DNA of 64,000 nucleotides from positions 1,678-65,677 of the forward strand of contig NVXU02000044.1 of NCBI GenBank assembly GCA_002734065.2, written 5' to 3'. Positions 17,302-59,795 of this stretch are shown here, one piece after another. The translations under genes were made by a program, and so were the position numbers. How positions within the stretch are numbered: the first letter of the stretch is position 1; each line of letters starts with the position of its first letter. Origin of the DNA: Fluviicola sp. (GTDB taxonomy: Bacteria; Bacteroidota; Bacteroidia; Flavobacteriales_D; Crocinitomicaceae). Below the pieces are notes generated by a model, which did no database searches, had not been told where the DNA came from, and saw only the letters and a list, made by a program, of their open reading frames with translations.

Positions 17302-17409
17302 GTTGAGCAAGAGGTTTGAGTCTTGAGCAAGAGAACTTAGTATTGAGTCGAGTGAAAACTCTTACTCTAAAGCCTTGCTCAATCCTAAAAAGATTTACTA
17401 CTTTTACTT

Positions 17410-20632: not shown

Positions 20633-22029
20633 GAAAGAATAAATCTGTCATCGGTAATTTTGATTGGCCTCTTTTTAGTTGCTACATTTTATTGCTTCTC
20701 ATGGGAATAGGAACGGTTTATTCCGTTGCCTACAATCCTGAGCACCCAAGCATATTTGATTTGTCAGAAAAATACGGAAAACAAATCATGTGGCTTGGCA
20801 TTTCTCTGTTTTTAGGCTTACTCGTTTTTCTCATTGACTCTGACATTTACAGAAAATTTTCTTTGCCCATTTATGGTTTTACTTTGAGCTTGTTGGTCAT
20901 CGTTTTATTCATGCCTGCGGTGAATGGTGCAAGAGCGTGGCTAGGTATTGGTTCAATGGGAATTCAACCTGCAGAATTTGCCAAAATTGGCACCGCTATT
21001 CTGTTGGCAAACTATCTAAGTGTCGCCAATATCAAGCAACAAAGTCGCAAGACAGTGCTTGTGGCAAACGCCATCATTTTAGTCCCTATGGTTCTAATTT
21101 TACTGCAACCGGATGCAGGGACATTTGTCGTTTTTACGGCTTTTCTATTCGTTTTATACCGTGAAGGTGTCTCGTACGACCCTTTAATACTTCCTGTTCT
21201 CAATGCAATACCCATTAAGGGCATCCATTTCAAAAAAACATGGGTGGGAACTCACTTTGTGCCCATTTTATTCGTAGTTCTTTTCTTAAGTATTACGACT
21301 TTGCTGTTGAGCAATTCTACCATTACACTTGACTTTTTAGGTGTTGAATTAGCGGGTTACTGGGGTGTTTTTTTCTTCCTTTTAGTTCTTTCTGTTGTCG
21401 GTTATTTTTTCATGAGAATGATCTTTTCGAGAAGAGATAGAAAGCGAGCATTGACCATCTCCATCATTGCATTTCTATTGTCCGTTACATTGACAAAAGG
21501 GATTGATTTCGGTTTTCAAAAACTGGCTGGACACCAAAAAGAAAGGATAGAGCTTGTACTTGGCTTGCGAGAAGACCCTAACGGAGATGATTACAATCGA
21601 AATCGCGCCATGGCGGCAGTCGGTTCTGGAGGTTTGCTGGGTAAAGGTTATCGAAACGCAACTGTTTCTTCGGTTCAAACAAATCATGTCCCAGAAAGTG
21701 AAACGGATTTCATTTTTTGTCCTTTTGCAGAAGAATGGGGATTTGCAGGAAGTATTATTCTTGTTTTTTTATACATCTTTATGATTTTAAGAATTGTAAT
21801 CATCGCAGAACGTCAAAAATCTACCTTTAATCGGGTTTATGCCTACTCCGTCGCGATGATAATTTTCTATCACTTTGCCATTAATATCGGCATGAACATT
21901 GAGTTTTCGCCAGTTATCGGCATTCCTCTTCCGTTTTTTAGCTACGGAGGATCCTCACTGATGTCTTTCTCCATGATGATGTTTATTTTACTGAAATTAG
22001 ACAGCCAAAGGAAGGATGTTTTGAATTAA
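20629..22029 (+). CDS. rodA: SEDS glycosyltransferase RodA
   Basis: FtsW/RodA/SpoVE family sequence (ESETDFIF, PLPFFSYGGSS); 466 aa, longer than ~370-aa E. coli RodA. Confidence 0.9.
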   Translation: MRKNKSVIGNFDWPLFSCYILLLLMGIGTVYSVAYNPEHPSIFDLSEKYGKQIMWLGISLFLGLLVFLIDSDIYRKFSLPIYGFTLSLLVIVLFMPAVNGARAWLGIGSMGIQPAEFAKIGTAILLANYLSVANIKQQSRKTVLVANAIILVPMVLILLQPDAGTFVVFTAFLFVLYREGVSYDPLILPVLNAIPIKGIHFKKTWVGTHFVPILFVVLFLSITTLLLSNSTITLDFLGVELAGYWGVFFFLLVLSVVGYFFMRMIFSRRDRKRALTISIIAFLLSVTLTKGIDFGFQKLAGHQKERIELVLGLREDPNGDDYNRNRAMAAVGSGGLLGKGYRNATVSSVQTNHVPESETDFIFCPFAEEWGFAGSIILVFLYIFMILRIVIIAERQKSTFNRVYAYSVAMIIFYHFAINIGMNIEFSPVIGIPLPFFSYGGSSLMSFSMMMFILLKLDSQRKDVLN

Positions 22030-22113
22030 ATCGACGAATACTCATTGGATGTCTTTAAGTCACCCTATGAGTATCAAATAAATTTTCTACATTTACAAGA
22101 CCAATAAAGAAAG

Positions 22114-30124: not shown

Positions 30125-33100
30125 TTATTTTTTTACTATTCTTGTTTGATAAATCTCATCACCAGAGATTAATACAAGGAAATAGATGGCAGGCTTCAAT
30201 CCTGAAATGTCGATAGTGTTAGTTTGCTTCGCTTGATAAACGACCCTTCCATTTAAGTCTAAAAGCTGAATCGAGTTAACGAGAATTCCGTTAAAATCAA
30301 TTTTCAACTCCCCAATGGTAGGATTAGGGTAGATGCGAATTGTTTCCATTCCATGAAGCGGCACGGCTAAACTTTCTTCGATTGTTATATAAACAGAGGC
30401 TACTGAAGGGCAATTTCCGTTTGTCGTGTAAACGATTTGGTAAGGGCCTCCAACTAGACTGGTTACTAAATCTATTTCACCAGTTATTGAATTAAGGGTT
30501 ACATTTCCCGTGCTTTCTGAGAATGATCCTCCTGTTAACCCTGTGACAGTTGGAAGTGGATTAGGATCTGTGCTAATGTAGGTTGGCTGACCATAGCTAA
30601 ATGAAGGGTCATCCTGCGCAGTGATTTCAACCTGAAAAGTAGACGAAGCAGATATGCATCCACCAGATGCTGCTATGAAATTCGTTACTGCATACACATT
30701 TGGTGTACTCCCCATTGGGGCTATTTCTCCTGTTGAAGAGTTAATACTTAATCCCGATGGTGTGGCAGAAAATACTCCACCGCTAGTTCCTGCGCCAAAT
30801 TGCGGTAGTGAGTTTAGGTCATCTTCACAATAAGTGGGTTGTGAATATGTAAAAGTAGCATCGGGCGAATTTGTGATGACCAAATTAAAATCGATTGAGT
30901 TGGCACAGTTTCCATTTGTGAGGTAAGAAATTGTATAGTTTCCAATACCACTTGCAGGAATATCAATCTCACCTGTGGATGAGTTTATCACAATACCATT
31001 TGTGCCTGAGAAAACTCCCCCGCCCAATCCAAGAATCGTAGGAATAGGATTAGCCCCCGAAAGACAGAATGTACCCGATGGATAAAAGAATGATGCATCA
31101 TCTAATTGGTTGATCGTTATTGTGGAGCTTGTGGAGTCAGGACAAACTCCACTTGTTAAGTATTTGATCGTGTAAGTATTAGGTATGCTAGTATTTAAGT
31201 TTAATTCACCTGTGAGTGGGTTCATAACCAATCCAGCAGGTAGCGAAGTGAAAGTGCCTCCTGGTGTACCCATTATTGATGGTGTTGGATTTACCTCGTT
31301 CTGGCAATAATTACTCGCTGTGTATGCTATGGTAGCAGCATCTCCAGCTACTATATTTACGTTTACTTGTGACGATACAGAGCAAACTCCATTCGTTTGG
31401 TAGTTGATTAGATAAGTGTTTGGTACGCTCAATGAGAAATCTATTTCTCCTGTCGAAGGATTGATTGATAATCCAGCAGGAGTTGCCGAGAAAGTTCCGC
31501 CTAAAGTTCCTGTAATTGACGGGAGCGAATTTGGATCATTTTCGCAATAATTTAAGGAAGCAAGGGTAAAACTAGCGTCATCAATGGCATTAATCGTAAT
31601 TGTACCAGCAATAGAATCAGGGCATGCTCCGTTTGTTATGTATTTAATCGTGTAAGCTGCTGGAGTGCTTAAAGAAAGGTCAATTTCTCCTGTTGAAGTA
31701 TTAATCACTAATCCCATAGGACTTGCGGAAAAAGTACCTCCTAGCGTTCCTGTTATAGAAGGAATAGGGTTCGCTTCTCCCTTGCAGTATGACAAGCTAG
31801 TGTATGAAAAACTAGCATTATCATTAGTAAGTAAGAATAATGACGTATTAGTTGTGTCAGGACAAGTTCCAGGTGAAGCATAATAAATAGTATATGGGCC
31901 AACAGAACTTGTGGATAGGTTAATTTCTCCGGTAGAAGAATTAATTGAAAGTCCATTTGTTCCGAAAAACGAACCTCCTGAATTTCCAGTGATTATCGGG
32001 GTAGGATTCAACCCAGAAACACAAAATGATGATGATGAATAGCTAAAAGAGGCATCTTCCTGAGGGTCTATTTGAACACTAAGACTTACCGTGTCTGGGC
32101 ACGCTCCTGCTATGATATAAGAAACAGAATAAATGGATGGTGTACTAGTAGATAAGTCAATCACACCTGATGAAGGGTTGATTGATAAACCAACGGGTGT
32201 TGAAGAAAAAACGCCACCAAGACTACCTGTTATTGTTGGCGAAGGATTAACTCCTCCCGAACAATAATTAGCGTTAGAATAAGAAAAGCTTGCGTCACCA
32301 TTTGGTGAAATTGAACTTATCGTAGTGCTTGCTGTAGGAATAGAACGACACTGTGTTTGAGTATCTAAAAGGGACAACTCATAAGTGCCGTTTCCCTGTG
32401 TAAGGAAAAAATTATAGTTCAAGTCATCAAACGTTTGCTGAACGCCATTGTAATACCAATTGAACCTAAAGGCCGATCCAGTATTTAATGATTGCAAATA
32501 GCCTTGGTCGTTTACGCAATTTCCCACAAAATTATTCACGATATAAGTATCGATGGTTCGATAACCACTAAAATTGAAAGCAACATCAACAGTACATCCG
32601 TTTCCAGCATCAACTGTCATTCCGAGATTTAAAGGAGTAGTAACACCATTTCCTCCCCAGATATAAATGGAATCAGCATTCGTTCCAAAGGGGCTGTTCC
32701 ACCAAGAATAAGCACTGGCATACTCGCTAGAAATGTTAAAAAACACGGTGTCATTAGGACAAACAGCATTTGCCCAGTTTAATCCTGTCATTGTAGCATT
32801 GACCTCTGGAGGAATACACACGCGCTGAGTCATCGTAGAATCAGCAGTTTTAAATGTTGAAATTGTAAATGTGTTATTGTCGGTAAGTCGCATTTTTGGA
32901 TTGCTTGATTCAGAATGTGTTTCGTAGGTGAAGTCAACCCAATTATATGAGTTTCCAATGAGTCTTCTTCGCTGTACTCGTATTGAATCTCCCGCTGCAT
33001 TTGAGCAAATATAAAGACTCGTATCACTTGCCATTTGAATGTCGGTATAATACGTATTGATAATCGAAGATAATTCATTTCCGTTCGCATCAAAAACTTT

Positions 33101-33991
33101 GATTGTATTTGCGTTCATTGCACGTACATATCTTCCATCTGAGAAACGCCAGTACTTCAGCCTAGTGGTTACAAATAATGAAGATGTATTTTGAAAATTT
33201 ACTGTTTCATTGAGTAAGCCAGATGATTTACTATATCGTTGCTTAGATGTAAAACTGTACACTGAAACATTAGCCCCTTCAATTAGTAGAACGGCATCCA
33301 TCTCTCCAGATGTCTGAGGAACTTTTGACCAAGCGAATGCACCTGTATTTGTGTACTTTATAAGAATGTTAGTCCCCGGAACGCCAATTAAAGCCGCATT
33401 CGTCTCTCCCAAAACAAACACATTATTTGCAGCATCTATTTTCATCTTATATGCGATATCATCGACTGAACTCCCTCCATCAAAAGATTTGGCCCAATCT
33501 AATATGCCAGATGTTAAGTATTTTAGCACCATGATGTTTTTTTCATCTGCACTAACTGCATTTGTACTATATCCAACAATAAAAACGTCTCCTGTTGTAC
33601 GATTAACCTCCATGCCAATTGCTGTAGTAGAAAGAATAGCACTGGAATATTGAGATGTCCACAATAATGTACCTGTAGGACTGTATTTTTTAACCATTAC
33701 GGCGGTGCTATTTTGAGTGTTTAGAACCACATAGGTGTTACCACTATTGTCGTATTCAACCTTTAAACCACCACCTGAACTGTAGGTGTCATAGAAAATA
33801 AGTGCTCCAGTATTATCGTGTTTCGAGACAAACGAACCTGTTGCATATACGTTGCCCGAAGGGTCAGCGATTGAATGCACAGGACTTGCTCCATTAAAGT
33901 ATGTTTCTAATGTTTCCCAAACCTTAGTTGGATTTTGAGAGAACCCTATAACACTTAGTACAAGCATCGCAATAGCTAACAAATATTTCAT
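30125..33991 (-). CDS. giant secreted protein with beta-propeller-like N-terminal region, 8 tandem ~80-aa repeats and T9SS type A C-terminal sorting domain
   Basis: Signal peptide; SBBP-like repeats (NSGNTYVV, TGDVFIVG); C-terminus IYPNPTIGELKIDF ... AIYFLVLISGDEIYQTRIVKK resembles Por_Secre_tail (TIGR04183). Confidence 0.85.
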   Translation of the reverse strand: MKYLLAIAMLVLSVIGFSQNPTKVWETLETYFNGASPVHSIADPSGNVYATGSFVSKHDNTGALIFYDTYSSGGGLKVEYDNSGNTYVVLNTQNSTAVMVKKYSPTGTLLWTSQYSSAILSTTAIGMEVNRTTGDVFIVGYSTNAVSADEKNIMVLKYLTSGILDWAKSFDGGSSVDDIAYKMKIDAANNVFVLGETNAALIGVPGTNILIKYTNTGAFAWSKVPQTSGEMDAVLLIEGANVSVYSFTSKQRYSKSSGLLNETVNFQNTSSLFVTTRLKYWRFSDGRYVRAMNANTIKVFDANGNELSSIINTYYTDIQMASDTSLYICSNAAGDSIRVQRRRLIGNSYNWVDFTYETHSESSNPKMRLTDNNTFTISTFKTADSTMTQRVCIPPEVNATMTGLNWANAVCPNDTVFFNISSEYASAYSWWNSPFGTNADSIYIWGGNGVTTPLNLGMTVDAGNGCTVDVAFNFSGYRTIDTYIVNNFVGNCVNDQGYLQSLNTGSAFRFNWYYNGVQQTFDDLNYNFFLTQGNGTYELSLLDTQTQCRSIPTASTTISSISPNGDASFSYSNANYCSGGVNPSPTITGSLGGVFSSTPVGLSINPSSGVIDLSTSTPSIYSVSYIIAGACPDTVSLSVQIDPQEDASFSYSSSSFCVSGLNPTPIITGNSGGSFFGTNGLSINSSTGEINLSTSSVGPYTIYYASPGTCPDTTNTSLFLLTNDNASFSYTSLSYCKGEANPIPSITGTLGGTFSASPMGLVINTSTGEIDLSLSTPAAYTIKYITNGACPDSIAGTITINAIDDASFTLASLNYCENDPNSLPSITGTLGGTFSATPAGLSINPSTGEIDFSLSVPNTYLINYQTNGVCSVSSQVNVNIVAGDAATIAYTASNYCQNEVNPTPSIMGTPGGTFTSLPAGLVMNPLTGELNLNTSIPNTYTIKYLTSGVCPDSTSSTITINQLDDASFFYPSGTFCLSGANPIPTILGLGGGVFSGTNGIVINSSTGEIDIPASGIGNYTISYLTNGNCANSIDFNLVITNSPDATFTYSQPTYCEDDLNSLPQFGAGTSGGVFSATPSGLSINSSTGEIAPMGSTPNVYAVTNFIAASGGCISASSTFQVEITAQDDPSFSYGQPTYISTDPNPLPTVTGLTGGSFSESTGNVTLNSITGEIDLVTSLVGGPYQIVYTTNGNCPSVASVYITIEESLAVPLHGMETIRIYPNPTIGELKIDFNGILVNSIQLLDLNGRVVYQAKQTNTIDISGLKPAIYFLVLISGDEIYQTRIVKK
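30374..32296 (-). repeat. 8 tandem in-frame ~80-aa (240-bp) Cys-bracketed repeats inside the 1288-aa protein
   Basis: Units follow D[AP][ST]F.Y....YC....NP.P.ITG..GG.FS..P.GL.IN..TGEIDL..S.P..Y.I.Y...G.CPD; boundaries mapped from codons for DASFSYS (32296) and ITIEE (30374). Confidence 0.85.
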
Positions 33992-34356
33992 AGATTGTAT
34001 GTTTTTTTATTTACATACAAAGTACGTTGATTACTATTGTTGATTTGTCATCAATTCTATCCAATTTGGTCTAAAATGGTTAATATTACGTGAATTGGAG
34101 GCTCATAAAAAGCTATTCTCATAGTAAAATTCTATTTTGCAAAAAAAAACTTAGTGAGCCCGTATGTGATAAGTGATTATACTCAATGAAAACAATTGAA
34201 TGTTTATTCACATACTTGTTTTATTCATTCTCTAGTCTAAAACACTCATGCCACCGACATCTTTTTTGCGCTTAGAGGTATTTTGTCTATCTTCGTCGAG
34301 AATTTGTTTGCTTTAATCGGACTACTTGTGAATTATTTAACTTCTTCTACTCAATT

Positions 34357-37300
34357 ATGATAAAGAAAATACTCCTTCTTTTTTGCCTTCTTTTTCAGCT
34401 GCAACTCACTGCGCAAATTGACACTGACTTTTGGTTTGCTGCTCCCGAAGTATCTGCTTCAGAAGGCGATAGTCCTATAGTATTGCGGTTTTTAACTTAT
34501 AACAATCCTGTTAATAACATTACCGTTTCCTTGCCAGCAAATGGTGGTTTTACTCCAATAAATATAACACTTGGAGCCAACCAAACAGGAAGCATTGACC
34601 TGACTCCTTTTATCGCAAGTATAGAAAGTCCAGCCGCAAATGTTGTGTCAAATAATGGAATTAGAATCGTAAGTGATCAGAATATTAGTGCGTATTACGA
34701 ATTAAACAACGCTTCCAACAAAGAAATCTTTACCTTAAAAGGTTCAAAGGCCTTGGGAGACAACTTTTATACTCCTTTTCAAACTTTTTGGGATAATTCT
34801 GCGACTACACCCGCCTCTTTTTCATCCATTGACATTGTTGCAACGGAGAATAACACCACTGTTTTAATTACCCCAAGAACGAACATTACTGGTAATGCAC
34901 AAGATGTTACCTTCTCTGTAGTCCTAAATCAAGGTGAAACATACAGCGCAAGAGACATGAATGTTACCGGTGCTTCAACGCTTGCGGGCTCTATTGTTTC
35001 CTCCGATAAACCAATCGCTTTAACATTGTTTAGTGGGAGTTTGAGTAATTCTACTTGCTCTAATGCAATGGGCGATCAAATAACGTCAGAAGTTTATACA
35101 GGGAGCAAGTACATTGTGCACAAAAGCACCTCTGGAAATGACCGTGTTTATATTTTGGCCACGCAGAATGGAACGAGCATAACAATCGATAATTCTGGAA
35201 CAACAACGACCCTTATTAACTGGGGTGAAACTTACGAAGTCGCTCTGAGCGATGCTATCAATTATATCAATGCCTCAAAACCTGTTTATGTTTGGCACGC
35301 ATCCGGTTATGGGTGTGAGTTGAGTGGTGCACAAGTTCCTCCAGTATTCTGCGCAGGAACTTATTCAACTGCTTTTACCAGAACTTCAACTGACTCATTA
35401 GGTTTGCTTCTTTACACACGGACAGGATTCGAAAATCAATTCGCGCTGAATGGCAGTCCTTTGTTGATTCCAGCAGGGGCATTCTCTCCTGTGCCAGGTA
35501 CAGCGGGGACTTTCCAAGTAGCATTGATTCACTACTCAACCGCTGACGTTCCTGTAAACTCTTACAATGAGGTGACCAATTCAGGCGATATTTTTGGGCT
35601 CGGTGTGATGAATGGCAACAGCGGAAGTGGCGCTTCTTATGGTTATCTTTCAGAGTTCGCTTCCTATCCATTTGTTAGTGGTGGGGCTGACGCATCAATC
35701 TGTGCCAATACTTCTCTCAACTTAACAGGGCTTGTTGGCGGAGGCTCGGTAACTGGTGTTTGGAGCGGAACGGGATTTGGAAGCTTTGCCAACCCAACAG
35801 ACCAACTTATCAATACTTATCTACCTAGTCCTTTGGACACTATTATTTCTCCCATTGAGCTTATTCTAACAACCACAGGTCCTTGCCCTGTTGTTCGTGA
35901 TACAATTACAATTACAGTGGAGCCAGCACCAATTGTTACGGCATCTGCTGATCAATCTTTGTGTGAGAACAACTCCAATGTTCAACTTGCTGGTGATGTT
36001 ACCGGAGGCGCAACAACTGGAGTTTGGGCGTCAACAGGTACTGGCGTTTTTAGTCCAAACAACACAACTTTTAACGCAATTTACACACCTTCAGCTGCAG
36101 ACTTAACTGCTGGGAGCGTTCAATTGGTTCTAACTTCTACAAATTTTGGTTCTTGCCTAACAGAGTCTGATACGATGGAGGTTGTCTTTTCACCACCACC
36201 AATAGTTGACTCTGGTGCCGATACCTTATACTCTTGTGAGAATAATTCTTTAGTGAATTTATCTGGAACAGTTTCTGGGGCAACAACAACGGGTAAATGG
36301 CTGTCAAGCGGGACTGGTGTTTTTAGTCCTGATAACCTAAGTTTATCTGCAAGCTACCAACCTTCTCCTGGAGATATATTACTAGGAAGTGTTCTTCTTC
36401 ATTTAGAATCTACCAGTAACTTAAGTTGCATCCCTGTATTAGACAGTGTTCTTATCATTTTTACTCCAGAACCTACTGTTAACGCAGGAACAAATTTCTT
36501 GACATGTACCAACAACGCAACAATAACATTAAACGGGGCTGTTGCTGGAGCAACGACAACTGGTGTTTGGACTGGAGGTGCAGGGGTTTATTCTCCCAAC
36601 GACACTGACCTAAACGCAACCTATACACCAACGGCTGGAGAAATAACTTCTGGAAATGTCTTTTTAACATTGACAACAACTAATAATGGTACTTGCCTTT
36701 CTGTAAATGACAACGTGCAAATAAGTTTTATTGCTCCCCCCACTGCTAATTTCAATTTCACCGAAGTATGTCTCAATAATCAATCTGTATTCACTGACTT
36801 CTCTTTGTCTGGTTTTGGCAACATAAGTAATTGGACTTGGGACTTCAACGATGGAACTAACTCAAACAATCAAGATGAAAATCACGTTTACACAACTCCT
36901 GGTGCTTATAATGTGCAATTACTTGTTACAACCAATGCTGGCTGTTCAGACTCAATTACTCAATTAGTGAATGTTTGGGAAGTTCCTGTTGCTGATTTCA
37001 GTTTTTCATCTAATTGCCCTAACAATCAAATAATTGTTGACTTTGTAGACCAATCCACAACCGTTTCTGACCCAATTAATTTTTGGTATTATGATTTTGG
37101 CGGACAAGGAACCACATCGACAGAAGACCCAACACAATTATTCTCGGCAAATGGGAACTATACGATTCTACACATCGTGGGAACTGCCAATGGTTGCTTT
37201 GACACAACTTCACAGCTGCTCACAGTTTCTCCTTTACCTGTAGCAAATTTTTCATACAACTTGAACACCTCCTCTAACGTAACGGCAGATGTTAATTTTG

Positions 37301-37782
37301 TTAACTCTTCAACAGATGCTGTGACCTATACTTGGAACTTTGGAAACGGCATCAGTTCTTCAGACATTAATCCGAGCATTACTTACTTTACCAACAATAA
37401 CTACATCATCACCTTATATGCTACTAGTGCTTTAGGTTGTGTTGATAGCACTTCGCAAATTATATTTATCGATAATATTGTTCCTCCTGAAGAAATAAAC
37501 ACCTTAATTCCAAACGCTATTTCACCAAATGGAGATGGTAAAAATGATGTTTGGAAACTGGACTTCTTGAATGTTCTTTATCCCAATGCCATTGTTCAAG
37601 TTTACAACGGATGGGGACAACAGCTTTTCGAATCAGAAGGTTACGCTGTCCCTTGGGATGGAACTTACAACGGTGAGAATGTACCTGACGGCAACTATTT
37701 CTACATCATTGACATTGGAGGAACAGGACAAGAAAGTGAAATCTTCAAGGGGGTTATCCTTGTGTTAAAAAGTAAAAACTAA
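34357..37782 (+). CDS. giant adhesin-like protein with T9SS type B C-terminal domain (gliding motility-associated CTD)
   Basis: Signal peptide; ~440-aa N-terminal domain; 4 x ~88-aa modules; 3 PKD-like domains (WDFNDGT, YDFGGQG, WNFGNG); C-terminus IPNAISPNGDGKNDVW ... GNYFYIID ... GVILVLK resembles TIGR04131. Confidence 0.85.
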   Translation: MIKKILLLFCLLFQLQLTAQIDTDFWFAAPEVSASEGDSPIVLRFLTYNNPVNNITVSLPANGGFTPINITLGANQTGSIDLTPFIASIESPAANVVSNNGIRIVSDQNISAYYELNNASNKEIFTLKGSKALGDNFYTPFQTFWDNSATTPASFSSIDIVATENNTTVLITPRTNITGNAQDVTFSVVLNQGETYSARDMNVTGASTLAGSIVSSDKPIALTLFSGSLSNSTCSNAMGDQITSEVYTGSKYIVHKSTSGNDRVYILATQNGTSITIDNSGTTTTLINWGETYEVALSDAINYINASKPVYVWHASGYGCELSGAQVPPVFCAGTYSTAFTRTSTDSLGLLLYTRTGFENQFALNGSPLLIPAGAFSPVPGTAGTFQVALIHYSTADVPVNSYNEVTNSGDIFGLGVMNGNSGSGASYGYLSEFASYPFVSGGADASICANTSLNLTGLVGGGSVTGVWSGTGFGSFANPTDQLINTYLPSPLDTIISPIELILTTTGPCPVVRDTITITVEPAPIVTASADQSLCENNSNVQLAGDVTGGATTGVWASTGTGVFSPNNTTFNAIYTPSAADLTAGSVQLVLTSTNFGSCLTESDTMEVVFSPPPIVDSGADTLYSCENNSLVNLSGTVSGATTTGKWLSSGTGVFSPDNLSLSASYQPSPGDILLGSVLLHLESTSNLSCIPVLDSVLIIFTPEPTVNAGTNFLTCTNNATITLNGAVAGATTTGVWTGGAGVYSPNDTDLNATYTPTAGEITSGNVFLTLTTTNNGTCLSVNDNVQISFIAPPTANFNFTEVCLNNQSVFTDFSLSGFGNISNWTWDFNDGTNSNNQDENHVYTTPGAYNVQLLVTTNAGCSDSITQLVNVWEVPVADFSFSSNCPNNQIIVDFVDQSTTVSDPINFWYYDFGGQGTTSTEDPTQLFSANGNYTILHIVGTANGCFDTTSQLLTVSPLPVANFSYNLNTSSNVTADVNFVNSSTDAVTYTWNFGNGISSSDINPSITYFTNNNYIITLYATSALGCVDSTSQIIFIDNIVPPEEINTLIPNAISPNGDGKNDVWKLDFLNVLYPNAIVQVYNGWGQQLFESEGYAVPWDGTYNGENVPDGNYFYIIDIGGTGQESEIFKGVILVLKSKN
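35680..36745 (+). repeat. 4 tandem ~88-aa Cys-bracketed modules
   Basis: Pattern AG.D...C.N....L.G.V.GATTTG.W...GTG.FSP......A.Y.PS..D...G.V.L.LT.T....C....D...I.F...P repeated 4 times; coordinates approximate. Confidence 0.7.
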
Positions 37783-38792
37783 TGAGAATACTACTCTTCA
37801 TATTATTCAGTTTTCTTTTCACTTCTGGTGTAAATGCCCAACAACGAGCGGTATATTCTAACTTCATGATGAGTGATTACTATCACAACCCTGCCATCGC
37901 TGGAACCAAAGATGTACATGTTGCTAATGTAAGTTACAGAAATCAATGGATTGGTTTTAGCGGCGCACCATCGTTAATTATGGCAAACTTCTTTGGGTCT
38001 ATTAATAACAACACCAAAAATGGATACGGTGTGTCAGTTATCTCAGAAAGAACAGGAATTACACAGAATTCTTCCATTTACTTGAATTATGCGCAACATT
38101 TTAAGCTTTCGGAAAATTTAAAACTAGGACTCGGTGTAAAACCCGGCTTTATGCAATACAGAATAAAACTCTACGACGCTATACTTGCAGATGAAGGGGA
38201 CAATGTTCTAACTGGAAATGTTTACGCAGCAAACGCATTAGATTTAAGTGCTGGGTTTAACCTCTATTCAGAAAAGTTTTTTGTCATGGCTTCCTTTCAG
38301 CAGTTGCTTGGGAAAGGATTGCGTTTTACTTCTTACAACGAGAACTTGAGCTTTCATTACAACGCGATTCTAGGCTACAACTTCTTATTGAAGAAGAAAA
38401 AAATTCAAATTCAGCCTAGTTTAATGGCTAAATACACAAAACCAGTCCCTTTACAATACACGGGAATGATTAAAACTACATTCAACGATAAATTTTGGTT
38501 TGGATTATTATACACAGGTGATGTAAACTGGAACACGAGTCAATATCCTATTAACGCCGCTGGAATTTCATTAGGAATGACTTTCAAAGAGCGTTTTATG
38601 GTTGGTTATAGCTTTGACTACACGCTTTCTAAAATTAGTAGTTACCAATCGGGCTCCCACGAAATTATGTTGACTTTTGTGATTACCAAAAACAAGCCGA
38701 CACTTGAAGAAGAAGATGATAAATTAAATAACAGTATCATGGAGGAGATGAAGAAGAAGATGGAGGAAAAAGAGCAACAAGAAAAGAATTAA
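37782..38792 (+). CDS. PorP/SprF-family T9SS outer membrane protein (copy 1)
   Basis: AQQRAVYSNFMMSDYYHNPAIAG N-terminus typical of TIGR03519; ATG shares one base with adhesin stop (TAATG); E/K-rich C-terminal tail. Confidence 0.85.
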   Translation: MRILLFILFSFLFTSGVNAQQRAVYSNFMMSDYYHNPAIAGTKDVHVANVSYRNQWIGFSGAPSLIMANFFGSINNNTKNGYGVSVISERTGITQNSSIYLNYAQHFKLSENLKLGLGVKPGFMQYRIKLYDAILADEGDNVLTGNVYAANALDLSAGFNLYSEKFFVMASFQQLLGKGLRFTSYNENLSFHYNAILGYNFLLKKKKIQIQPSLMAKYTKPVPLQYTGMIKTTFNDKFWFGLLYTGDVNWNTSQYPINAAGISLGMTFKERFMVGYSFDYTLSKISSYQSGSHEIMLTFVITKNKPTLEEEDDKLNNSIMEEMKKKMEEKEQQEKN

Positions 38793-38802
38793 TATAAACG
38801 TT

Positions 38803-41800
38803 ATGAAACTTTTAAAATACATCATTCTTGCGCTTTTACTAAGTAATGTTAGTGCGTCAAAGCTACAAGCACAAATAGACACCTTGTTTTGGTTTGCCCC
38901 ACCATGGGTGACACCCGATCATGATAACAATGTGCAATTAGCATTTAGAATCTCAACTTTTGGAAATGCGGCGACAGTAAGAATGCAACAACCCGCTTTA
39001 TTGTTTGATACAACTTTTGTTGTTCCTGCAAACTCTTTAGCAGATGTGCCATTAGATTATTTAGTTAATTCTTTAGAAAGCACTCCTGCAGATGCAATAC
39101 TCACCTCGGGAATGAAGATTACCTCTACCGAATTAATCACAGTCGTTTATGATTTTATTTCCGATTTAATTACAATATCACCCGGCTCACCTAATAATCC
39201 TGAAACGTACTCCTTGAAAGGACAAAATGGTATGGGATTGGAATTCGTAACTCCTTTTCAAACAATCTGGAACAATCGCGCACTTTCGACGGATAGAAAT
39301 GGTGATGGAACTGTTACTCAACCTAAACAGTATTTTTCAATTGTTGCCACAGAAGACAACACTACGGTCTACATTAAACCCAACTGTGATGTTATAGGTC
39401 ACCCTGCTGATATTACTTATTCTATAGTATTGCCCTTGGCAGGGAATGTTTACACCTGCGAGAATGTTACTCTAATTACAAGTGCCCCAGGAGACAACCT
39501 GTCTGGTTCTGTTGTTTTTGCTGACAAACCCATTTCTATAACAATCAACGATGATTCTGTAAATCCAGCAGGAGGAGGAGGTTGTTTTGATTTGATGGGA
39601 GATCAAATTGTACCAACAGATGTAATCGGAAATGAATACATTGTAAACATCGGGTTCTTAAATGCCGGCTCAAACGAGTCCATTTTTATCATTCCCGCAG
39701 AAAATTTTACTACTGTGACTGTTACTGATGGTGGCACTACAACTCAAATGATGAATCAAGGAGAGACTTGGCAATATTCTATTACAGACCCTCTAACACA
39801 CATTATTGCTGATAAGCCTTTGTACCTTGTACATATGTCAGGCTATGGCTGTGAGTTAGGAATGGCTATTTTGCCTCCCCTCAATTGCGCTGGGTCTAAT
39901 GAGGTTTCTTTTGCAAGAAATAACAATCAACAATTCTTATTGAACTTACTTTGCGCTGCAGGTGACGAAGGATCATTCACATTAACAGGTCCTGGAACAG
40001 GAACTGTAACAGCTGCTTCTTTTGCTCCTGTACCAGGAACTGGTGGGGCTTGGGTGGGTGCTCAAATTGATTACACAACGGCAGAAATCCCCAGTGGCAC
40101 TCAAAACACATTGACTAACTCTGCTGGTTTTTTCTCTATGGGGGTTATTAACGGAGGACCTGCAACGGGTTGTCTGTATCATTATATGTCTTCTTTTCAC
40201 CGAAGGGTAATCACAGAAGCTGGTGTTGACACAACTTTATGTAACGGCGTTCCAACAGTTGATTTAAACGGAACCGTAACTGGAGGAACAACTACTGGTA
40301 TTTGGACCGTTCTTGATGGGACAGGAACCATTAGTAACCCAACAACTTTAGTGAATACTTATGCACCAACAACAAGTGATTATAATCAAGGTTATTTAAC
40401 CTTTGTTTTGGCATCTACAGGCAATTGTACACCTGTAACAGATACGATGCGTGTTACTTATATTCAATCACCGATTGTTGATGCTGGACTGGATGATGGT
40501 TACTGTAAGAATAACATTGGAGCCGTACCTATATCAGGTTCGGTTAACTTTGCTGCAGGAGCCAATTGGACGGGTGGAAATGGAGGTGCTTTTGGTAACC
40601 CTGGAAGTCTTGCGACAACCTACACCCCTTCACCAGCGGACATTGCACAAGACAGTGTGATTCTTGTTCTAAGTTCTGCAGGAAGCTTTTTCTCCTGCCC
40701 AAATGATAATGACACTGTTGTTATTCGTTTTACACAGGCACCCGCAGTTATTGCCGGAGCAGATGCCGTTCTTTGCTCAAACACTTCAACGATTAACCTC
40801 AACGGACTCGTTTCTGGAGCTACATCCACTGGTATTTGGACAACCAACGGGGCGGGGGCATTCTCCCCGACTTCTACTGCGCCAATTACGGACTATTTAG
40901 TAAGTTCTGCTGACACAACTGCTGGGACGATTTCTTTGGTCTTGACCTCAACAAATAATGGCAATTGTTTAGCAGAACAAGACAGTATTCAAATAACATT
41001 CTTAGCTGAGCCTTCGTTAACGATTACCTCTGCCGATTCGATTTGTTCTAACTTAGCCTTGCTAAGCCTCGACGGAACTATCTCTGTTGGCTACACCCCA
41101 ACTTGGACAACTGGAGGCTTTGGTTCTATTGTTGCTCCAAATTCTATCTCTACACAATATAATATTACGGCTGTTGATACAGCGCAAGGCTATGTTGATT
41201 TCTACTTAGAGTCAAACGCTGGAATTTGCCCAACAACTACTGACTCATTAAGAATATACTTCATTGACCCACCAGCTGTTTTTGCAGGTCTTGACCAAAA
41301 CTTTTGTGACAATGCCGTTATACAAGTAAATGGTTCTGTAACCGGAATTAGTTCCGTTGGGAACTGGACAACGTTGGGTACGGGGACTTGGAGTCCAGGG
41401 GCAAACTTCCCAGTTACAACTTACATTCCATCAGCTCTTGATATAGCAAACGGCTCTGTAGATTTAACCTTATCTTCCACAAGTGTTTTTGGGTGCGCTC
41501 CGAATAGCGACGTCGTTACGATAACATTCTTAAGCTCTCCAACGGCTGATTTCTCCGCAACAATGGCCTGTGCGGGACAGAACACTGTCTTTACAGATGG
41601 TTCAACTGGTTCTGTCACTAATTGGGATTGGGATTTTGGAGATGCGGATACTTCAATCGTTTCTAACCCAACGCACACTTATACGGGGTCTGGTAATTAC
41701 ACAACAACATTGATTGCTTATTCTAGCAATGGTTGTAGTGACACTACTCAACAAGTAATAGTTGTTAATCCTGTTCCTATTGCTGATTTTTCGCCAACAG

Positions 41801-42552
41801 CAGCATGTGAAAACATTCCCATTAACTTAACAGACCTTTCTTTTATTTCTGGAGGATTAATTAATTCTTGGATGTATGACTTTGGAGGCGGTGCATCAAG
41901 CACAGATCAACATCCAACTTACACTTTTACTGGTTCTGGCTTGCAACAAGTGACCCTCACTGTTACTTCTACGCTAGGTTGTGTAGACGACACCACAATT
42001 AATTTCTCAATAACACCTGCGCCAATAGCAGATTTTACATTTACGCCAGACCAAGCAATTGTTCAAGAACAAGTAAACTTTACAGACATATCTGTTGGAA
42101 ATGGAATCTATCAATGGTTGTGGGAGTTTGGTGATGGACAAGGAAACAACGTGCAGAACCCCGTCCATTCTTTCAATGACGGCGGGACTTTTGATGTCAT
42201 GCTCATTATTACGGATGCAAACGGATGCATTGATACAGCTGTTCATTCTATTTTAATAGGATTGCCTCCTGTTTTACCGACTGGGTTTACGCCAAACGGA
42301 GATGGAGAGAATGACATTTTCTATATACGGGGCGGTCCTTTCGAAACCGTTTCTTTTAATGTGTATAATAAATGGGGAGAATTGATTTTCTCTGCCACAG
42401 AAGCTGATTTTATAACAGACTGGAGTGATTTAGGCTGGGACGGAACCTTTCAAGGTGAACCTGTTCCTCTTGGTGTTTATACATGGACATTTGTTGTGGA
42501 ACAAGGTCGAGAAATTCATAAAAAAACGGGTGACGTTACCCTAATGCGTTAA
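38803..42552 (+). CDS. second giant adhesin-like protein with T9SS type B C-terminal domain (paralogue of 34357..37782)
   Basis: Same architecture: signal peptide, homologous N-terminal domain (DTLFWFAPPW, SGYGCELGMAILPPLNCAG), 5 x ~89-aa modules, 3 PKD-like domains, CTD PTGFTPNGDGENDIF ... GVYTWTFVV ... GDVTLMR. Confidence 0.85.
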   Translation: MKLLKYIILALLLSNVSASKLQAQIDTLFWFAPPWVTPDHDNNVQLAFRISTFGNAATVRMQQPALLFDTTFVVPANSLADVPLDYLVNSLESTPADAILTSGMKITSTELITVVYDFISDLITISPGSPNNPETYSLKGQNGMGLEFVTPFQTIWNNRALSTDRNGDGTVTQPKQYFSIVATEDNTTVYIKPNCDVIGHPADITYSIVLPLAGNVYTCENVTLITSAPGDNLSGSVVFADKPISITINDDSVNPAGGGGCFDLMGDQIVPTDVIGNEYIVNIGFLNAGSNESIFIIPAENFTTVTVTDGGTTTQMMNQGETWQYSITDPLTHIIADKPLYLVHMSGYGCELGMAILPPLNCAGSNEVSFARNNNQQFLLNLLCAAGDEGSFTLTGPGTGTVTAASFAPVPGTGGAWVGAQIDYTTAEIPSGTQNTLTNSAGFFSMGVINGGPATGCLYHYMSSFHRRVITEAGVDTTLCNGVPTVDLNGTVTGGTTTGIWTVLDGTGTISNPTTLVNTYAPTTSDYNQGYLTFVLASTGNCTPVTDTMRVTYIQSPIVDAGLDDGYCKNNIGAVPISGSVNFAAGANWTGGNGGAFGNPGSLATTYTPSPADIAQDSVILVLSSAGSFFSCPNDNDTVVIRFTQAPAVIAGADAVLCSNTSTINLNGLVSGATSTGIWTTNGAGAFSPTSTAPITDYLVSSADTTAGTISLVLTSTNNGNCLAEQDSIQITFLAEPSLTITSADSICSNLALLSLDGTISVGYTPTWTTGGFGSIVAPNSISTQYNITAVDTAQGYVDFYLESNAGICPTTTDSLRIYFIDPPAVFAGLDQNFCDNAVIQVNGSVTGISSVGNWTTLGTGTWSPGANFPVTTYIPSALDIANGSVDLTLSSTSVFGCAPNSDVVTITFLSSPTADFSATMACAGQNTVFTDGSTGSVTNWDWDFGDADTSIVSNPTHTYTGSGNYTTTLIAYSSNGCSDTTQQVIVVNPVPIADFSPTAACENIPINLTDLSFISGGLINSWMYDFGGGASSTDQHPTYTFTGSGLQQVTLTVTSTLGCVDDTTINFSITPAPIADFTFTPDQAIVQEQVNFTDISVGNGIYQWLWEFGDGQGNNVQNPVHSFNDGGTFDVMLIITDANGCIDTAVHSILIGLPPVLPTGFTPNGDGENDIFYIRGGPFETVSFNVYNKWGELIFSATEADFITDWSDLGWDGTFQGEPVPLGVYTWTFVVEQGREIHKKTGDVTLMR
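40216..41550 (+). repeat. 5 tandem ~89-aa Cys-bracketed modules
   Basis: Same module pattern as 35680..36745; coordinates approximate. Confidence 0.7.
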
Positions 42553-42555
42553 TGT

Positions 42556-43575
42556 ATGATTAAAAGAATTACTCTCATAGCAATTTTCTTTTTAGGTGTT
42601 CATGCAGCAAATGCACAGGACGCCCACTTGTCGTTGTATGATGCTGCACCCCTCTCTTTAAACCCCGCAATGACGGGAGTTTTTGAAGGTGACTGGAGGT
42701 TGCATGGCCAATACCGAACGCAATGGAAGTCCGTTAATTTTAAACCTTACCAAACAGGGTTAATCAGTTTTGATATGTCCAAAAAGAAATGGGGTTTTGG
42801 TATTCAAATTTCTAACTTTAGAGCAGGGCAAGGAAATTATAACGCTCTTCAAGGTTCTGTTTCTGCTGCTTATACTACTTCTTTAGACAGAAGGAAACAC
42901 CACAATTTATCCTTTGGATTACAGGCTGGTGTGACACAAAAATCAATAGAATACCAGCTTTTAACCTATAATAACCAATACACAACTATTGATGGCGGTG
43001 GTTTCAATCAAGATTTAGGCTCTTTGGAGAATTTTAACGGGCAATCTGTTATTTTGCCAGTCACAAATGTCGGTTTACTCTATTTCTTTGCGAAACAAGA
43101 GAGTAGGCTTAATCCATTTATTGGTCTTTCTGCTTTTAATTTGTTAGAGCCTAAAGAATCTCTTTACGGTATCGATAATCGATTGCCTATGCGTTTTTAT
43201 GGGCACTTTGGTACGCGAATTAATGTTACGGAGTTGTTCTATTTAATTCCTAAGTTATTAGTGATGAATCAAGGTAAATTCTGGGAGCAAACTTATGCGT
43301 TAGATGCCGGTTATTACCTCAAAAACAATGACTTTTATCTTTTGGGAGGAGTAATTGTTCGTTCTGTTGGAGATGTTGCAAATACCTTTGGATCCGATGC
43401 TATGATTATTTCGATAGGAGCAAAAATGGAAAACATTGTTGCCAAAATTGCCTACGATGTTAATGTTTCAAAGTTGTCAAGATTTACCGCTGGAAAAGGA
43501 GGGTTTGAGGTCTCCGTAACTTATACACATCAGAAGAAGAAACCTCGAACAGAGAAAATTTGTCCACGACTTTAA
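42556..43575 (+). CDS. PorP/SprF-family T9SS outer membrane protein (copy 2)
   Basis: AQDAHLSLYDAAPLSLNPAMTG N-terminus; starts 3 nt after adhesin stop. Confidence 0.85.
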   Translation: MIKRITLIAIFFLGVHAANAQDAHLSLYDAAPLSLNPAMTGVFEGDWRLHGQYRTQWKSVNFKPYQTGLISFDMSKKKWGFGIQISNFRAGQGNYNALQGSVSAAYTTSLDRRKHHNLSFGLQAGVTQKSIEYQLLTYNNQYTTIDGGGFNQDLGSLENFNGQSVILPVTNVGLLYFFAKQESRLNPFIGLSAFNLLEPKESLYGIDNRLPMRFYGHFGTRINVTELFYLIPKLLVMNQGKFWEQTYALDAGYYLKNNDFYLLGGVIVRSVGDVANTFGSDAMIISIGAKMENIVAKIAYDVNVSKLSRFTAGKGGFEVSVTYTHQKKKPRTEKICPRL

Positions 43576-43585
43576 GAAGAATTTC

Positions 43586-45694
43586 ATGATAAAAAAAATC
43601 ATCATATTTGTTTTACTAGCGCTCCCTATGGTTGTGCAAAGTCAATCCAGAAAGGTGTGGATAAACAATGCCGACAACTTTTACGAAAAAGAAGACTTTC
43701 ACAATGCACTGATTAATTATAAATTAGCTTTGAGTGATTCTTCAGGCTTATCAATGATGGTCCTTCCTTATGAAGTTGACATTACAAAACAGAAGTTAAG
43801 TGAAAAAGGCAAAGAAATTGATACCGCTCGACAGGTTCCGTTGCGAGATTATTTAGAACATCAAATTGCTTCTTGTTACTTACAGACTTACGACTACAAA
43901 AAAGCCGTTGAACAGTTTGAAAAAACATCCACTTTTGAATCTTATCCCGAGGATGTCTATCACTTCGCAGTAGCCCAAATGAATGTTGATCAGCATGAAA
44001 ATGCAATCGTTAACTTCGAGAGATACATCAGCTCCGACCATTACAATGACTCCTTACTTAGAAGTGCTCAGCTTTCCGTTACGGGTTGCAAATACGCAAT
44101 GAACAGTGAAAATGTGAAAGAAAAAGTGGCAGTTTGGAGAGCAGACACCAACGTATTTAACAAAGGGTCCTCTTCTTTTGCTACTATGTTCTTCGGAAGT
44201 GAAGAAAAAATTCTATTCACAAGCGCTCGAGATGGTGGCGTAATTTTAGATCCTGAAAAGCAAGATTCTAAGTTCATTTTAGACCTCTACTGGACTCAAA
44301 AATCAGGGGAAAATGACTGGTCAGAAGCAAAAAACTTTGGAAGACCGTTGAATACTGCTCAGCATGATGCTTCAGGCACACTGAGTAAGAATGACATTAT
44401 TTACTACACTCGCTGGAGTGATGCTGACAGAAAAGATAAGAATATCTATTTGGCGAGAATGGTCAATTTAAAGTTCTATGAGTCTTTTAAACTTCCTGAA
44501 GCGGTTAATGTTCCGGGCTATAAAAGTGTTAACCCTTTCGTTACTAAAAGCGGTAAATGGCTTTACTTTTCAAGCAATCGACCAGGCGGTGAAGGAGGTA
44601 TGGACATCTGGAAAATAGAATTGAATGAATCTGGCAACGTAATCAACGACGCCATTAATTTAGGGCGACCCATTAATTCAGAATTAAATGAAGTAACTCC
44701 TTTCTATCACCAGGTTTCTTCTACCCTGTTTTTTAGTTCTAACGGACACAATTCCATTGGGGGCTTAGATATTTACAAAGCTTCCTACAATAGACGTAAC
44801 AAGGCTTTCGATGACCCCATTAACTTAGGAATGCCTATTAACTCAAGCAAAGACGATGCTTATTTAATCTGGGATGACAACCTAAAAAACGGTTTCTTTT
44901 CGAGTGATAGAGAACCTTGCGAAAACGGGCATTGCTACGATATCTATCAGGTTAGCAATGAGCCAATAATAATTACCTTGAGCGGTTATGCTTTTAATGG
45001 AGAAACGGATGAAGTTCTACCAAACACCAACCTTGCATTTAAAGATATCGATTTTGTCTTCGAAACTTTTGATCTTAAAACGGATGAAGATGGTTTTTAC
45101 AGTATTGAATTGACTCAGAATCAAGAGATTTTTATTAAAGCAACTCGACCTTCATTCTTTGCCGATGCAGCATCGGTAAACACGAAATCTATCACAGAGT
45201 CAACAAAATTAACGCAGGACTTTTTCTTAAATCCTATTCCAACAGGTGAAATTGAAATTGAAGGGATTGAATACGATTTTGACAAGGCAACTTTGCGTCC
45301 TTCTTCAAAAGAAATTCTAGATAAACTGGTAGAGTTCTTAGAGTTGAATAATAACCTTGTGATTGAAATTAATTCTCACACAGATGCTCGAGGAAGTGAC
45401 AAATACAACCAGCGCCTTTCTCAAAGAAGAGCAAAATCATGTGTTGATTACCTGATTAAGAGTGGAATTAGCAAAACGAGGTTGAAAGCAATCGGCTATG
45501 GTGAGTCAGAACCAAACGTGTTGAAAGGTGCAAACAAAAAACCTGTATTGGATGATAAAGGCAAACGAATCTACTTGACTGAAGATGTTATTAAAGCAGC
45601 AGAATCAGAAGAACTAAGAGAAGAGTATCATCAGCGCAATAGAAGAACTTCATTTAAAGTTGTTGGCGAAGGATTTAATTTGGAAAGCAATTAG
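43586..45694 (+). CDS. PorE-like multidomain OmpA-family protein (TPR + PD40 beta-propeller + carboxypeptidase-regulatory-like + OmpA_C)
   Basis: TPR-like helices near N-terminus; PD40-type repeats (FSSNRPGGEGGMDIW, FFSSNGHNSIGGLDIY, FFSSDRE); CRD-like segment ITLSGYAFNGETDEVLPNT...DEDGFYSIEL; OmpA_C (NSHTDARGSDKYNQRLSQRRA). Confidence 0.75.
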   Translation: MIKKIIIFVLLALPMVVQSQSRKVWINNADNFYEKEDFHNALINYKLALSDSSGLSMMVLPYEVDITKQKLSEKGKEIDTARQVPLRDYLEHQIASCYLQTYDYKKAVEQFEKTSTFESYPEDVYHFAVAQMNVDQHENAIVNFERYISSDHYNDSLLRSAQLSVTGCKYAMNSENVKEKVAVWRADTNVFNKGSSSFATMFFGSEEKILFTSARDGGVILDPEKQDSKFILDLYWTQKSGENDWSEAKNFGRPLNTAQHDASGTLSKNDIIYYTRWSDADRKDKNIYLARMVNLKFYESFKLPEAVNVPGYKSVNPFVTKSGKWLYFSSNRPGGEGGMDIWKIELNESGNVINDAINLGRPINSELNEVTPFYHQVSSTLFFSSNGHNSIGGLDIYKASYNRRNKAFDDPINLGMPINSSKDDAYLIWDDNLKNGFFSSDREPCENGHCYDIYQVSNEPIIITLSGYAFNGETDEVLPNTNLAFKDIDFVFETFDLKTDEDGFYSIELTQNQEIFIKATRPSFFADAASVNTKSITESTKLTQDFFLNPIPTGEIEIEGIEYDFDKATLRPSSKEILDKLVEFLELNNNLVIEINSHTDARGSDKYNQRLSQRRAKSCVDYLIKSGISKTRLKAIGYGESEPNVLKGANKKPVLDDKGKRIYLTEDVIKAAESEELREEYHQRNRRTSFKVVGEGFNLESN

Positions 45695-59766: not shown

Positions 59767-59774
59767 TACTTTTG
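59767..59774 (+). promoter_or_regulatory. candidate -7 promoter box
   Basis: TACTTTTG, 21 nt upstream of ATG 59796. Confidence 0.45.
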
Positions 59775-59795
59775 TCTAAATCAAATCATTATACA

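Follow-up and report, generated by a model that had tools for sequence, protein, structure and literature searches.

Five conserved genes in Fluviicola and its relatives encode two putative type B adhesins, two unlike PorP carriers and one PorE-like anchor with a predicted disulfide to its neighbouring carrier

Kulkarni et al. (2019) are reportedly credited, beside later papers, for the Flavobacterium johnsoniae operons that encode a type IX secretion system (T9SS) cargo of type B, a SprF-like protein and a PorE homologue. Here we analyse a locus of this kind from Fluviicola sp. (Crocinitomicaceae). It lies in a 64,000-nucleotide stretch of contig NVXU02000044.1 of assembly GCA_002734065.2 (positions 1,678 to 65,677 of the forward strand), hereafter the window, where five genes encode two putative adhesins, each directly followed by a PorP/SprF-like carrier (adhesin 1 with PorP1, adhesin 2 with PorP2), and a closing PorE-like protein (gene 5). 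The contig that carries them was assembled from several metagenomes, and an identical PorE-like protein is annotated in a Fluviicola sp. metagenome-assembled genome (MAG). In Porphyromonas gingivalis, PorE associates with PorP and with the type B cargo PG1035, and Gorasia et al. (2022), who described this association, postulated that PorP–PorE-like complexes anchor to the cell wall those type B cargoes that do not move; six F. johnsoniae porP-like genes adjoin porE-like genes (PMC9143113). Paillat et al. (2025) described five such F. johnsoniae operons and their shuttle dependence, and fusions of Fjoh_3952, whose operon includes a PorE homologue, formed static foci only (PMC12618676). Gliding bacteria have multiple PorE homologues, most of which are not lipoproteins, and the WD40 domain of PorE is implicated in, and needed for, PorP binding (PMC12773672).

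Two disulfide couplings between proteins of the T9SS and gliding apparatus provide the closest precedents for the cysteine arrangement reported below. In the SprB–SprF–GldK system, the CxC motif in the C-tail of SprF forms a strained disulfide that is resolved by Cys343 of GldK to give an intermolecular bond, and a single-Cys variant of SprF bonds GldK inefficiently (Liu et al. 2025, PMC12635249). The disulfide that joins the twin-Cys of PorG to PorK behaves likewise (Gorasia et al. 2025, PMC12365241). The cysteines of the window also combine a twin-Cys site with a single-Cys partner and would likewise be suited to thiol–disulfide exchange. Relative to SprF–GldK, however, the roles are mirrored, in that the barrel tail bears the single Cys and its partner in the periplasm bears the twin Cys, and the predicted partner is a peptidoglycan-bound anchor, which would give a static complex, rather than the moving GldK track.

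With its adhesin 2–PorP2–PorE-like part, the locus falls into an already published class, the cargo/PorP-like/PorE-like operons. The F. johnsoniae genes Fjoh_3952–Fjoh_3951–Fjoh_3950 follow the same order of type B cargo, PorP/SprF-like protein and PorE homologue, with the same proposed static anchoring, but the window differs from the F. johnsoniae operons in having two cargo–carrier pairs that share a single PorE-like gene, the first of them with a very different PorP subtype. The sole Flavobacteriaceae-labelled PorP–PorE-like pair scored (L084) is without the Cys tail and the Cys loop described below. The P. gingivalis PG1035–PorP–PorE set comprises the same three protein classes, its PorE has the same order of four domains, and the OmpA_C domain of gene 5 is most like that of the P. 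gingivalis structure 6TOP (41% identity in the fold alignment, with the D/N pair kept). In P. gingivalis, however, the genes are unlinked and PorE, a lipoprotein, serves the T9SS in general, whereas the PorE-like protein of the window falls below the PorE family cutoff and has no lipobox; none of the solitary Bacteroidales-type PorE-like proteins in the sample has its twin-Cys propeller loop. The initial annotation of this locus had regarded the three-part organisation as functionally uncharacterised. The arrangement of cargo, PorP and PorE-like genes is already in print, as is the model of static anchoring (PMC9143113, PMC12618676), and the inference of that annotation, sound in itself, restates an existing model. 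What is new is the five-gene variant, the presence of two unrelated carrier types encoded with one anchor, and the conserved cysteine pairing.

The C-tails of the two carriers are unrelated. PorP1 contains no cysteine and ends in a conserved acidic tail, KP(T/S)L(E/D)E(E/Q)D(D/E)xLNNSI(L/M)EE. PorP2 has Cys336 as its sole cysteine, located in a short basic tail that ends KICPRL-COOH and is invariant in the orthologues. The SprF-type CxC motif was found in neither C-tail. The ending C-P-(R/K)-(L/I)-COOH closes every PorP encoded directly upstream of a main-clade PorE-like gene, from Crocinitomicaceae to Chitinophagaceae and Sphingobacteriales. When PorP2 was searched against 1.84 billion representative proteins and the 134 full-length sequences among the top 150 matches were scored, a Cys lay exactly at position −4 in 73 of the 134, with the consensus C-P-R-(F/L/Y/I), against a background Cys frequency of 0.29%. 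A separate clade of PorE-adjacent PorPs (L069:3614, L078:1 and L084:8932) has the tail V-(N/Y)-P-N-P-F and no cysteine, which suggests that PorP C-tails are generally a partner-specifying element.

The PorE-like proteins carry matching cysteines. These comparisons draw on a locus scan that used one genome per species, kept the best 80 loci at most and returned 79, which were annotated with hidden Markov models (HMMs) derived from the orthologue sets. In the last PD40 blade, the loop usually reads S-N-R-x-G-G-x-G-x-D-D-I-Y; in gene 5 it holds C445 and C450. Where the paired PorP has a tail Cys, this loop contains at least two cysteines in 65 of 65 PorE-like proteins, whereas the 18 other PorE-like proteins, which are unpaired or accompany a Cys-less PorP, have none there, a split (65/65 versus 0/18) that is not to be read as a probability. 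The 18 include the second, convergent PorE-like paralogue of several Fluviicola genomes. The loop takes the form Cx4C in Crocinitomicaceae, CxC...C or CxxC...C in Vicingaceae and Crocinitomix, and vicinal CC in Chitinophagales and Sphingobacteriales, so that the chemistry of the loop changes between lineages while the cysteines persist. In one Crocinitomicaceae MAG, a DsbB-family gene (disulfide-bond formation) lies just downstream of the operon (L006:12463-12990, minus strand), which may be a coincidence but deserves mention in view of the cysteines.

The five-gene unit is conserved well beyond the window. Its full order was found in 32 loci, the window included, from Crocinitomicaceae, Fluviicola (including a MAG labelled F. 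taffensis), Salibacteraceae and Parvicella, and 11 further loci that are cut by contig ends agree with it as far as they are readable. Where the PorE-like protein exceeds ~46% identity and the contig reaches far enough upstream, no locus departs from this arrangement. The PorE-like orthologues at 60–70% identity each lie within a five-gene unit, with flanks that otherwise differ, and the protein lengths across the orthologous units are 1141–1155, 322–336, 1240–1249, 329–339 and 700–714 aa in gene order. Retention of the unit in 32 loci with different flanks rules out a lineage-specific accident, and the invariant adjacency argues against mere coincidence. The PorE-like protein has more than 120 cluster representatives at 60% identity or above. 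All five proteins diverge together, at 57–72% identity (80–84% for the neighbouring aspartyl-tRNA synthetase), which means that the cargo evolves no faster than the machinery. The survey of adhesin–porP–porE synteny that the initial annotation had proposed yielded these 32 loci and, in addition, 18 loci with a three-gene form that consists of an adhesin-2-type cargo, a PorP2-type carrier and a PorE-like protein at 26–42% identity. The three-gene form occurs in Vicingaceae, Crocinitomix, Chitinophagaceae, Mucilaginibacter and Niastella, and its cargo has a C-terminal domain (CTD) of the adhesin 2 subtype. In both forms the PorP that adjoins the PorE-like gene is always of the PorP2 type. A solitary PorE-like gene was found in many Bacteroidales and other loci.

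Within the window, the five genes lie on the same strand. The first two overlap by a single nucleotide (TAATG), and the next three junctions are gaps of 10, 3 and 10 nt; the open reading frame (ORF) positions and all the junctions agree with the tight packing first claimed. We infer from this spacing that the five genes form one operon, a reading favoured by the overlap and the 3–10-nt gaps, by internal terminator-like sites that do not exceed chance, and by the five-gene order kept in 32 loci. Sigma-70 promoter-like and terminator-like sites within the unit were fewer than in shuffled controls, although the sigma-70 scan is not informative for Bacteroidota and the promoter and terminator scans are uninformative either way. 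The 365-nt intergenic region upstream is common to adhesin 1 and to a divergent type-A-CTD gene (30125-33991). No exact match to the Bacteroidota motif TAnnTTTG was found in this region, and the motif occurs inside coding sequence only.

The components were identified by profile searches. Both adhesins contain an IgGFc_binding-like N-domain (PF17517), three PKD domains (PF18911) and a type B CTD (PF13585), which scored 57.7 bits in adhesin 1 and 41.1 bits in adhesin 2 against TIGR04131 (cutoff 35) and 82.1 and 49.3 bits against PF13585 (cutoff 27); the PNGDGxND motif is present in both CTDs. The common architecture described for the 1141-aa and 1249-aa proteins, with four versus five Cys-bracketed modules, was borne out by the profile matches, by the Cys spacing and by an alignment of the nine segments, in which the modules of ~88 aa share 27–48% pairwise identity. 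The N-termini show a hydrophobic stretch followed by a conserved AQ|IDTxFWFA in the window and its orthologues, and by inspection they are putative signal peptides. The N-domain is the best-conserved part of the adhesins, and orthologues of adhesin 1 are 1141–1155 aa long with 61–67% identity. Of the carriers, PorP1 and PorP2 scored 209.9 and 150 bits against TIGR03519 (cutoff 90.55) and 208.2 and 106.6 bits against PF11751, which supports the claim that a PorP/SprF-like gene stands directly after each adhesin. From this gene position, each cargo would be secreted through the T9SS with the carrier encoded directly downstream as its cognate partner.

Gene 5 closes the operon with a protein whose predicted domain order is that of PorE. 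It matches PF00691 (OmpA) and PF07676 (PD40), and its homologues also match TPR and CarboxypepD_reg-like models. An AlphaFold2 model (42 homologues, mean predicted local distance difference test (pLDDT) score of 73) shows TPR helices (residues 1–172), a β-propeller (197–457), a β-sandwich (463–548) and an OmpA_C domain with an α/β fold (560–695) in this order, in agreement with the TPR/propeller/CRD/OmpA_C description given at the outset. Among solved structures, 6TOP, the C-terminal domain of P. gingivalis PorE, comes closest in sequence (E = 1.6e-24) as well as in fold. D600 and N608 are invariant in 42 sequences and align with a D...N pair of the same protein, whose members stand 8 residues apart within its motif SHADRKGPDAYN (PorE SH(A)D...YN); in P. 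gingivalis PorE, D576 and N584 are reported to bind peptidoglycan (PMC12773672). Against the NF052230 PorE model, gene 5 scored 346 bits (E = 3.6e-103), with residues 82–693 on positions 51–647 of 648, and the curated cutoff of 600 bits rules out membership of the NCBIfam PorE family. The N-terminus, MIKKIIIFVLLALPMVVQSQ|SRKVW, has no lipobox Cys and no Cys at all before residue 97, and the same holds in four orthologues, in keeping with the mostly non-lipoprotein PorE homologues reported from gliding bacteria. The proposal of a PorE paralogue therefore stands as far as homology and PorE domain order are concerned, but the protein is not a PorE equivalog. The CHU_0125-family OmpA-like outer membrane integrity protein (NF053607) has the same TPR/propeller/OmpA_C architecture and aligns over residues 93–645 (E = 1.7e-81); its 274.6 bits, far short of the family cutoff of 620, rule out membership of that family. 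The HMM searches that the initial annotation had singled out, for the type B CTD, PorP/SprF and OmpA_C, all gave significant matches, and its idea of a self-contained surface-attachment module is supported.

The two cargo–carrier pairs are less alike than a duplicated cassette would be. The adhesins are paralogous as proposed (34% identity over ~1087 residues, BLASTP E = 9e-147). However, their alignment stops before the CTDs, which share 31% identity; PorP1 and PorP2 show no significant BLASTP similarity (E = 0.018), and their C-tails are unrelated. A recent tandem duplication of the whole cassette is ruled out by the dissimilarity of the PorPs and by the end of the adhesin alignment ahead of the CTDs. 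To judge from sequence comparison, the simplest history looks like an old cargo 2–PorP2–PorE-like module that later gained, on its upstream side, another cargo whose passenger is paralogous and a carrier of a different type, because the three-gene PorP2 core stands alone in distant taxa.

Several loci of the scan depart from the common pattern in detail. In Fluviicola relatives, a second PorE-like paralogue with 21–22% identity lies directly downstream of the operon in convergent orientation (L026:12372-14420, L028:2963-5038, L029:12626-14677, L033:12601-14679 and L043:6840-8888, all on the minus strand); it has no propeller-loop cysteines and carries its own CxC...C cluster at about residues 278–303. 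The window has EamA and ArsC genes at the place where some Fluviicola relatives carry this paralogue. A second cargo–PorP2–PorE-like module stands beside the first in L040:12951-21700, with a 1389-aa cargo and a PorP that ends TCPKL, and L064:17719-21700 holds a convergent second three-gene set with a PorP that ends VCPIYM. Two loci from MAGs labelled Arenicella sp. (L042, a gammaproteobacterium) and Chryseobacterium gleum (L059) carry a Crocinitomicaceae-type operon with a PorE-like protein at 47–50% identity and are probably mis-binned. In a few MAGs (L013:846-4277, L032:2689-8990, L043:2-6335 and L052:830-4250), the genes for an adhesin or for PorP/PorE-like proteins are broken up into several ORFs, owing to frameshifts or assembly errors, or possibly to pseudogenisation. 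Upstream of the three-gene modules of L047-L049, L053, L054, L056, L058, L060, L062 and L077, a divergent gene of 830–1140 aa on the minus strand encodes a protein with an IgGFc_binding-like N-domain in which no type B CTD was detected.

In the mechanism that we propose, the adhesins would cross the inner membrane via Sec and then be exported by the T9SS translocon, and the PorP/SprF β-barrel encoded directly downstream would collect each adhesin and hold its type B CTD. PorP2 would be linked to the PorE-like protein, which would lie in the periplasm, bind peptidoglycan through its OmpA_C domain and so immobilise the complex. The lone tail Cys of PorP2 at −4 would attack a strained C445/C450 disulfide in the last-blade loop to give a mixed disulfide. 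PorP1 would most likely use the same anchor non-covalently, or be retained through pairing of adhesin 1 with adhesin 2. The disulfide is predicted by analogy with SprF–GldK and PorG–PorK, because a mirror-image combination of a single-Cys tail and a twin-Cys partner is found here within the domain reported to bind PorP; the inefficient bonding of single-Cys SprF favours a twin-Cys partner for a single-Cys tail. We put at about even the chance that the locus is an operon of two adhesins, their own carriers and a shared peptidoglycan anchor in which the tie between PorP2 and the PorE-like protein is covalent. The wider proposal, that a large PorP subfamily with C-P-R-hydrophobic tails is disulfide-stapled to the twin-Cys loop of dedicated PorE-like anchors and thereby fixes adhesins, with PorP1 on the same anchor, possibly through the TPR region, and one anchor thus serving two adhesins, is more tentative and somewhat short of even. 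No description of a PorP–PorE disulfide or of a CPRL tail was found in the searchable literature, which may not cover all literature.

A number of observations weigh against this proposal. All Cys-loop PorE-like proteins form one clade in a neighbour-joining (NJ) tree. The perfect split of the loop cysteines may therefore trace back to one ancestral event with later retention, and its use as independent statistical evidence was dropped because of this single Cys-bearing clade. The pLDDT falls below 50 at loop residues 444–448 of the AlphaFold2 model. The Cys-less clade of L069, L078 and L084 keeps the PorP–PorE-like adjacency, for which the cysteines are thus not needed, and C445 and C450 could form a simple structural disulfide while Cys336 of PorP2 bonds GldK instead. 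Moreover, the PorE-like protein is without a lipobox, unlike P. gingivalis PorE, and its link to the outer membrane must come wholly from protein contacts. Co-transcription of the five genes is read from their spacing, and the adhesive function of the two cargoes is assumed from their domain types.

Rather unlikely, in our judgement, is ordinary non-covalent anchoring of cargo, PorP and PorE-like protein, of the kind proposed for P. gingivalis PG1035–PorP–PorE and for F. johnsoniae Fjoh_3952/3951/3950, in which the loop cysteines would be structural and the tail Cys of PorP2 would have another role or none. PorE and PorP of P. gingivalis were recovered together by pull-down and a disulfide between them is not mentioned (PMC9143113, PMC12773672), the second clade (L078 and L084) shows adjacency, and presumably binding, without tail or loop cysteines, and in the model a Cx4C pair that spans a hairpin turn would plausibly be a structural disulfide. 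Against such an arrangement stand the invariant Cys at −4, which as the sole Cys of PorP2 can find no partner within the protein, and its occurrence in 73/134 representatives over the 0.29% background; furthermore, the vicinal CC of Chitinophagales and Sphingobacteriales makes a poor structural but a reactive disulfide. An alternative destination for the tail Cys would be Cys343 of GldK/PorK, to which PorP2 would be tethered like SprF, so that adhesin 2 would ride the gliding track and the PorE-like protein would have a separate role, for instance in local envelope stabilisation or assembly. Fluviicola has been described as gliding. GldK is the only experimentally shown partner of a PorP-family tail cysteine (PMC12635249), and the PorE–PorP–PG1035 complex of P. 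gingivalis binds PorK weakly (PMC12773672). We nevertheless consider this arrangement improbable: SprF uses a CxC motif and bonds GldK inefficiently with a single Cys, which is all that PorP2 has, the perfect tracking of the twin-Cys loop with the PorP tail Cys would be left unexplained, and operons with PorE homologues have been linked to static rather than mobile cargo (PMC12618676).

The identity of the anchor can also be questioned, as gene 5 might be the general housekeeping PorE, encoded by chance after a cargo–carrier array. Its high conservation, with the more than 120 cluster representatives noted above, would fit such a role, no other PorE-like gene was found within the 64-kb window, and P. 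gingivalis PorE is required for the secretion of many cargoes (PMC12773672). On the other hand, the score of 346 bits lies far below the 600-bit cutoff and there is no lipoprotein signal, a PorP2-type gene invariably adjoins it in the 32 five-gene loci and the 18 three-gene loci although the flanks are unrelated, and relatives hold further PorE-like paralogues (L026, L028, L029, L033 and L043, and the second modules of L040 and L064). Gliding Bacteroidota are reported typically to have several PorE homologues that are not lipoproteins (PMC12773672), and the solitary Bacteroidales-type PorE proteins fall in different clades. Taken together, these points make a housekeeping role for gene 5 highly improbable. 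The features of the locus are listed in Table 1.

Table 1 Features of the five-gene locus, with positions in the window in nucleotides and domain boundaries in residues
Feature	Position	Strand	Description
Upstream intergenic region, 365 nt	33992-34356	+	Presumed promoter region; only gap long enough for a promoter
Adhesin 1 gene, 1141 aa	34357-37782	+	ORF call
Adhesin 1 domains			N-domain ~21-440; 4 Cys-bracketed modules ~441-795; 3 PKD; type B CTD 1051-1135
PorP1 gene, 336 aa	37782-38792	+	ORF call; its first nt is shared with the adhesin 1 stop
Adhesin 2 gene, 1249 aa	38803-42552	+	ORF call
Adhesin 2 domains			Architecture of adhesin 1 but 5 Cys-bracketed modules; type B CTD 1159-1249, different subtype
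PorP2 gene, 339 aa	42556-43575	+	ORF call
PorP2 C-terminal tetrapeptide C-P-R-L, codons	43561-43572	+	
PorE-like gene (gene 5), 702 aa	43586-45694	+	ORF call
PorE-like domains, N-terminal part			Signal peptide without lipobox; TPR helices ~1-172; PD40 β-propeller ~197-457 (C445-x4-C450 loop in the last blade)
Twin-Cys loop C445-E-N-G-H-C450 of the PorE-like propeller	44918-44935	+	Proposed docking/disulfide site for the PorP2 tail Cys
PorE-like domains, C-terminal half			CRD-like β-sandwich ~463-548; OmpA_C peptidoglycan-binding domain ~556-695, invariant D600/N608

The remainder of the window consists of housekeeping genes, including purH, and two type-A-CTD cargo genes; no core T9SS or gliding (gld, spr) genes were found among the 30 other window ORFs scanned. 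The type-A-CTD gene that diverges from the operon (30125-33991, minus strand) encodes a 1288-aa protein with a Por_Secre_tail domain and no other Pfam match, and the second (59772-61688, plus strand) encodes a 638-aa cargo (Por_Secre_tail, E = 1e-16) in which no other domain was detected. A housekeeping cluster on the plus strand (16276-24600) comprises mreB, mreC, a 171-aa ORF in the mreD position, a PBP2-type transpeptidase, a RodA/FtsW-family protein and a class A PBP.

How type B cargo of the T9SS comes either to ride the gliding track or to stay at one spot is a question under current study. For cargo that stays, the published answer points to a PorE homologue from the same operon, so far a speculation backed by microscopy of one F. 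johnsoniae protein. The locus described here and its relatives turn this into a residue-level prediction, which joins Cys −4 of PorP2 with the twin-Cys loop of the PorE-like propeller and extends the recently discovered periplasmic intermolecular disulfides of Bacteroidota. Should the prediction fail, the locus would be one more case of a known operon type. If it is true, the bond would be the third disulfide coupling in the T9SS/gliding apparatus, after SprF–GldK and PorG–PorK, and the one that specifies static placement. A tail rule for the fate of an adhesin would then follow, in which a carrier ending in CxC would mark mobile cargo, a C-P-R-hydrophobic end PorE-anchored cargo, and an acidic or PNPF tail another mode.

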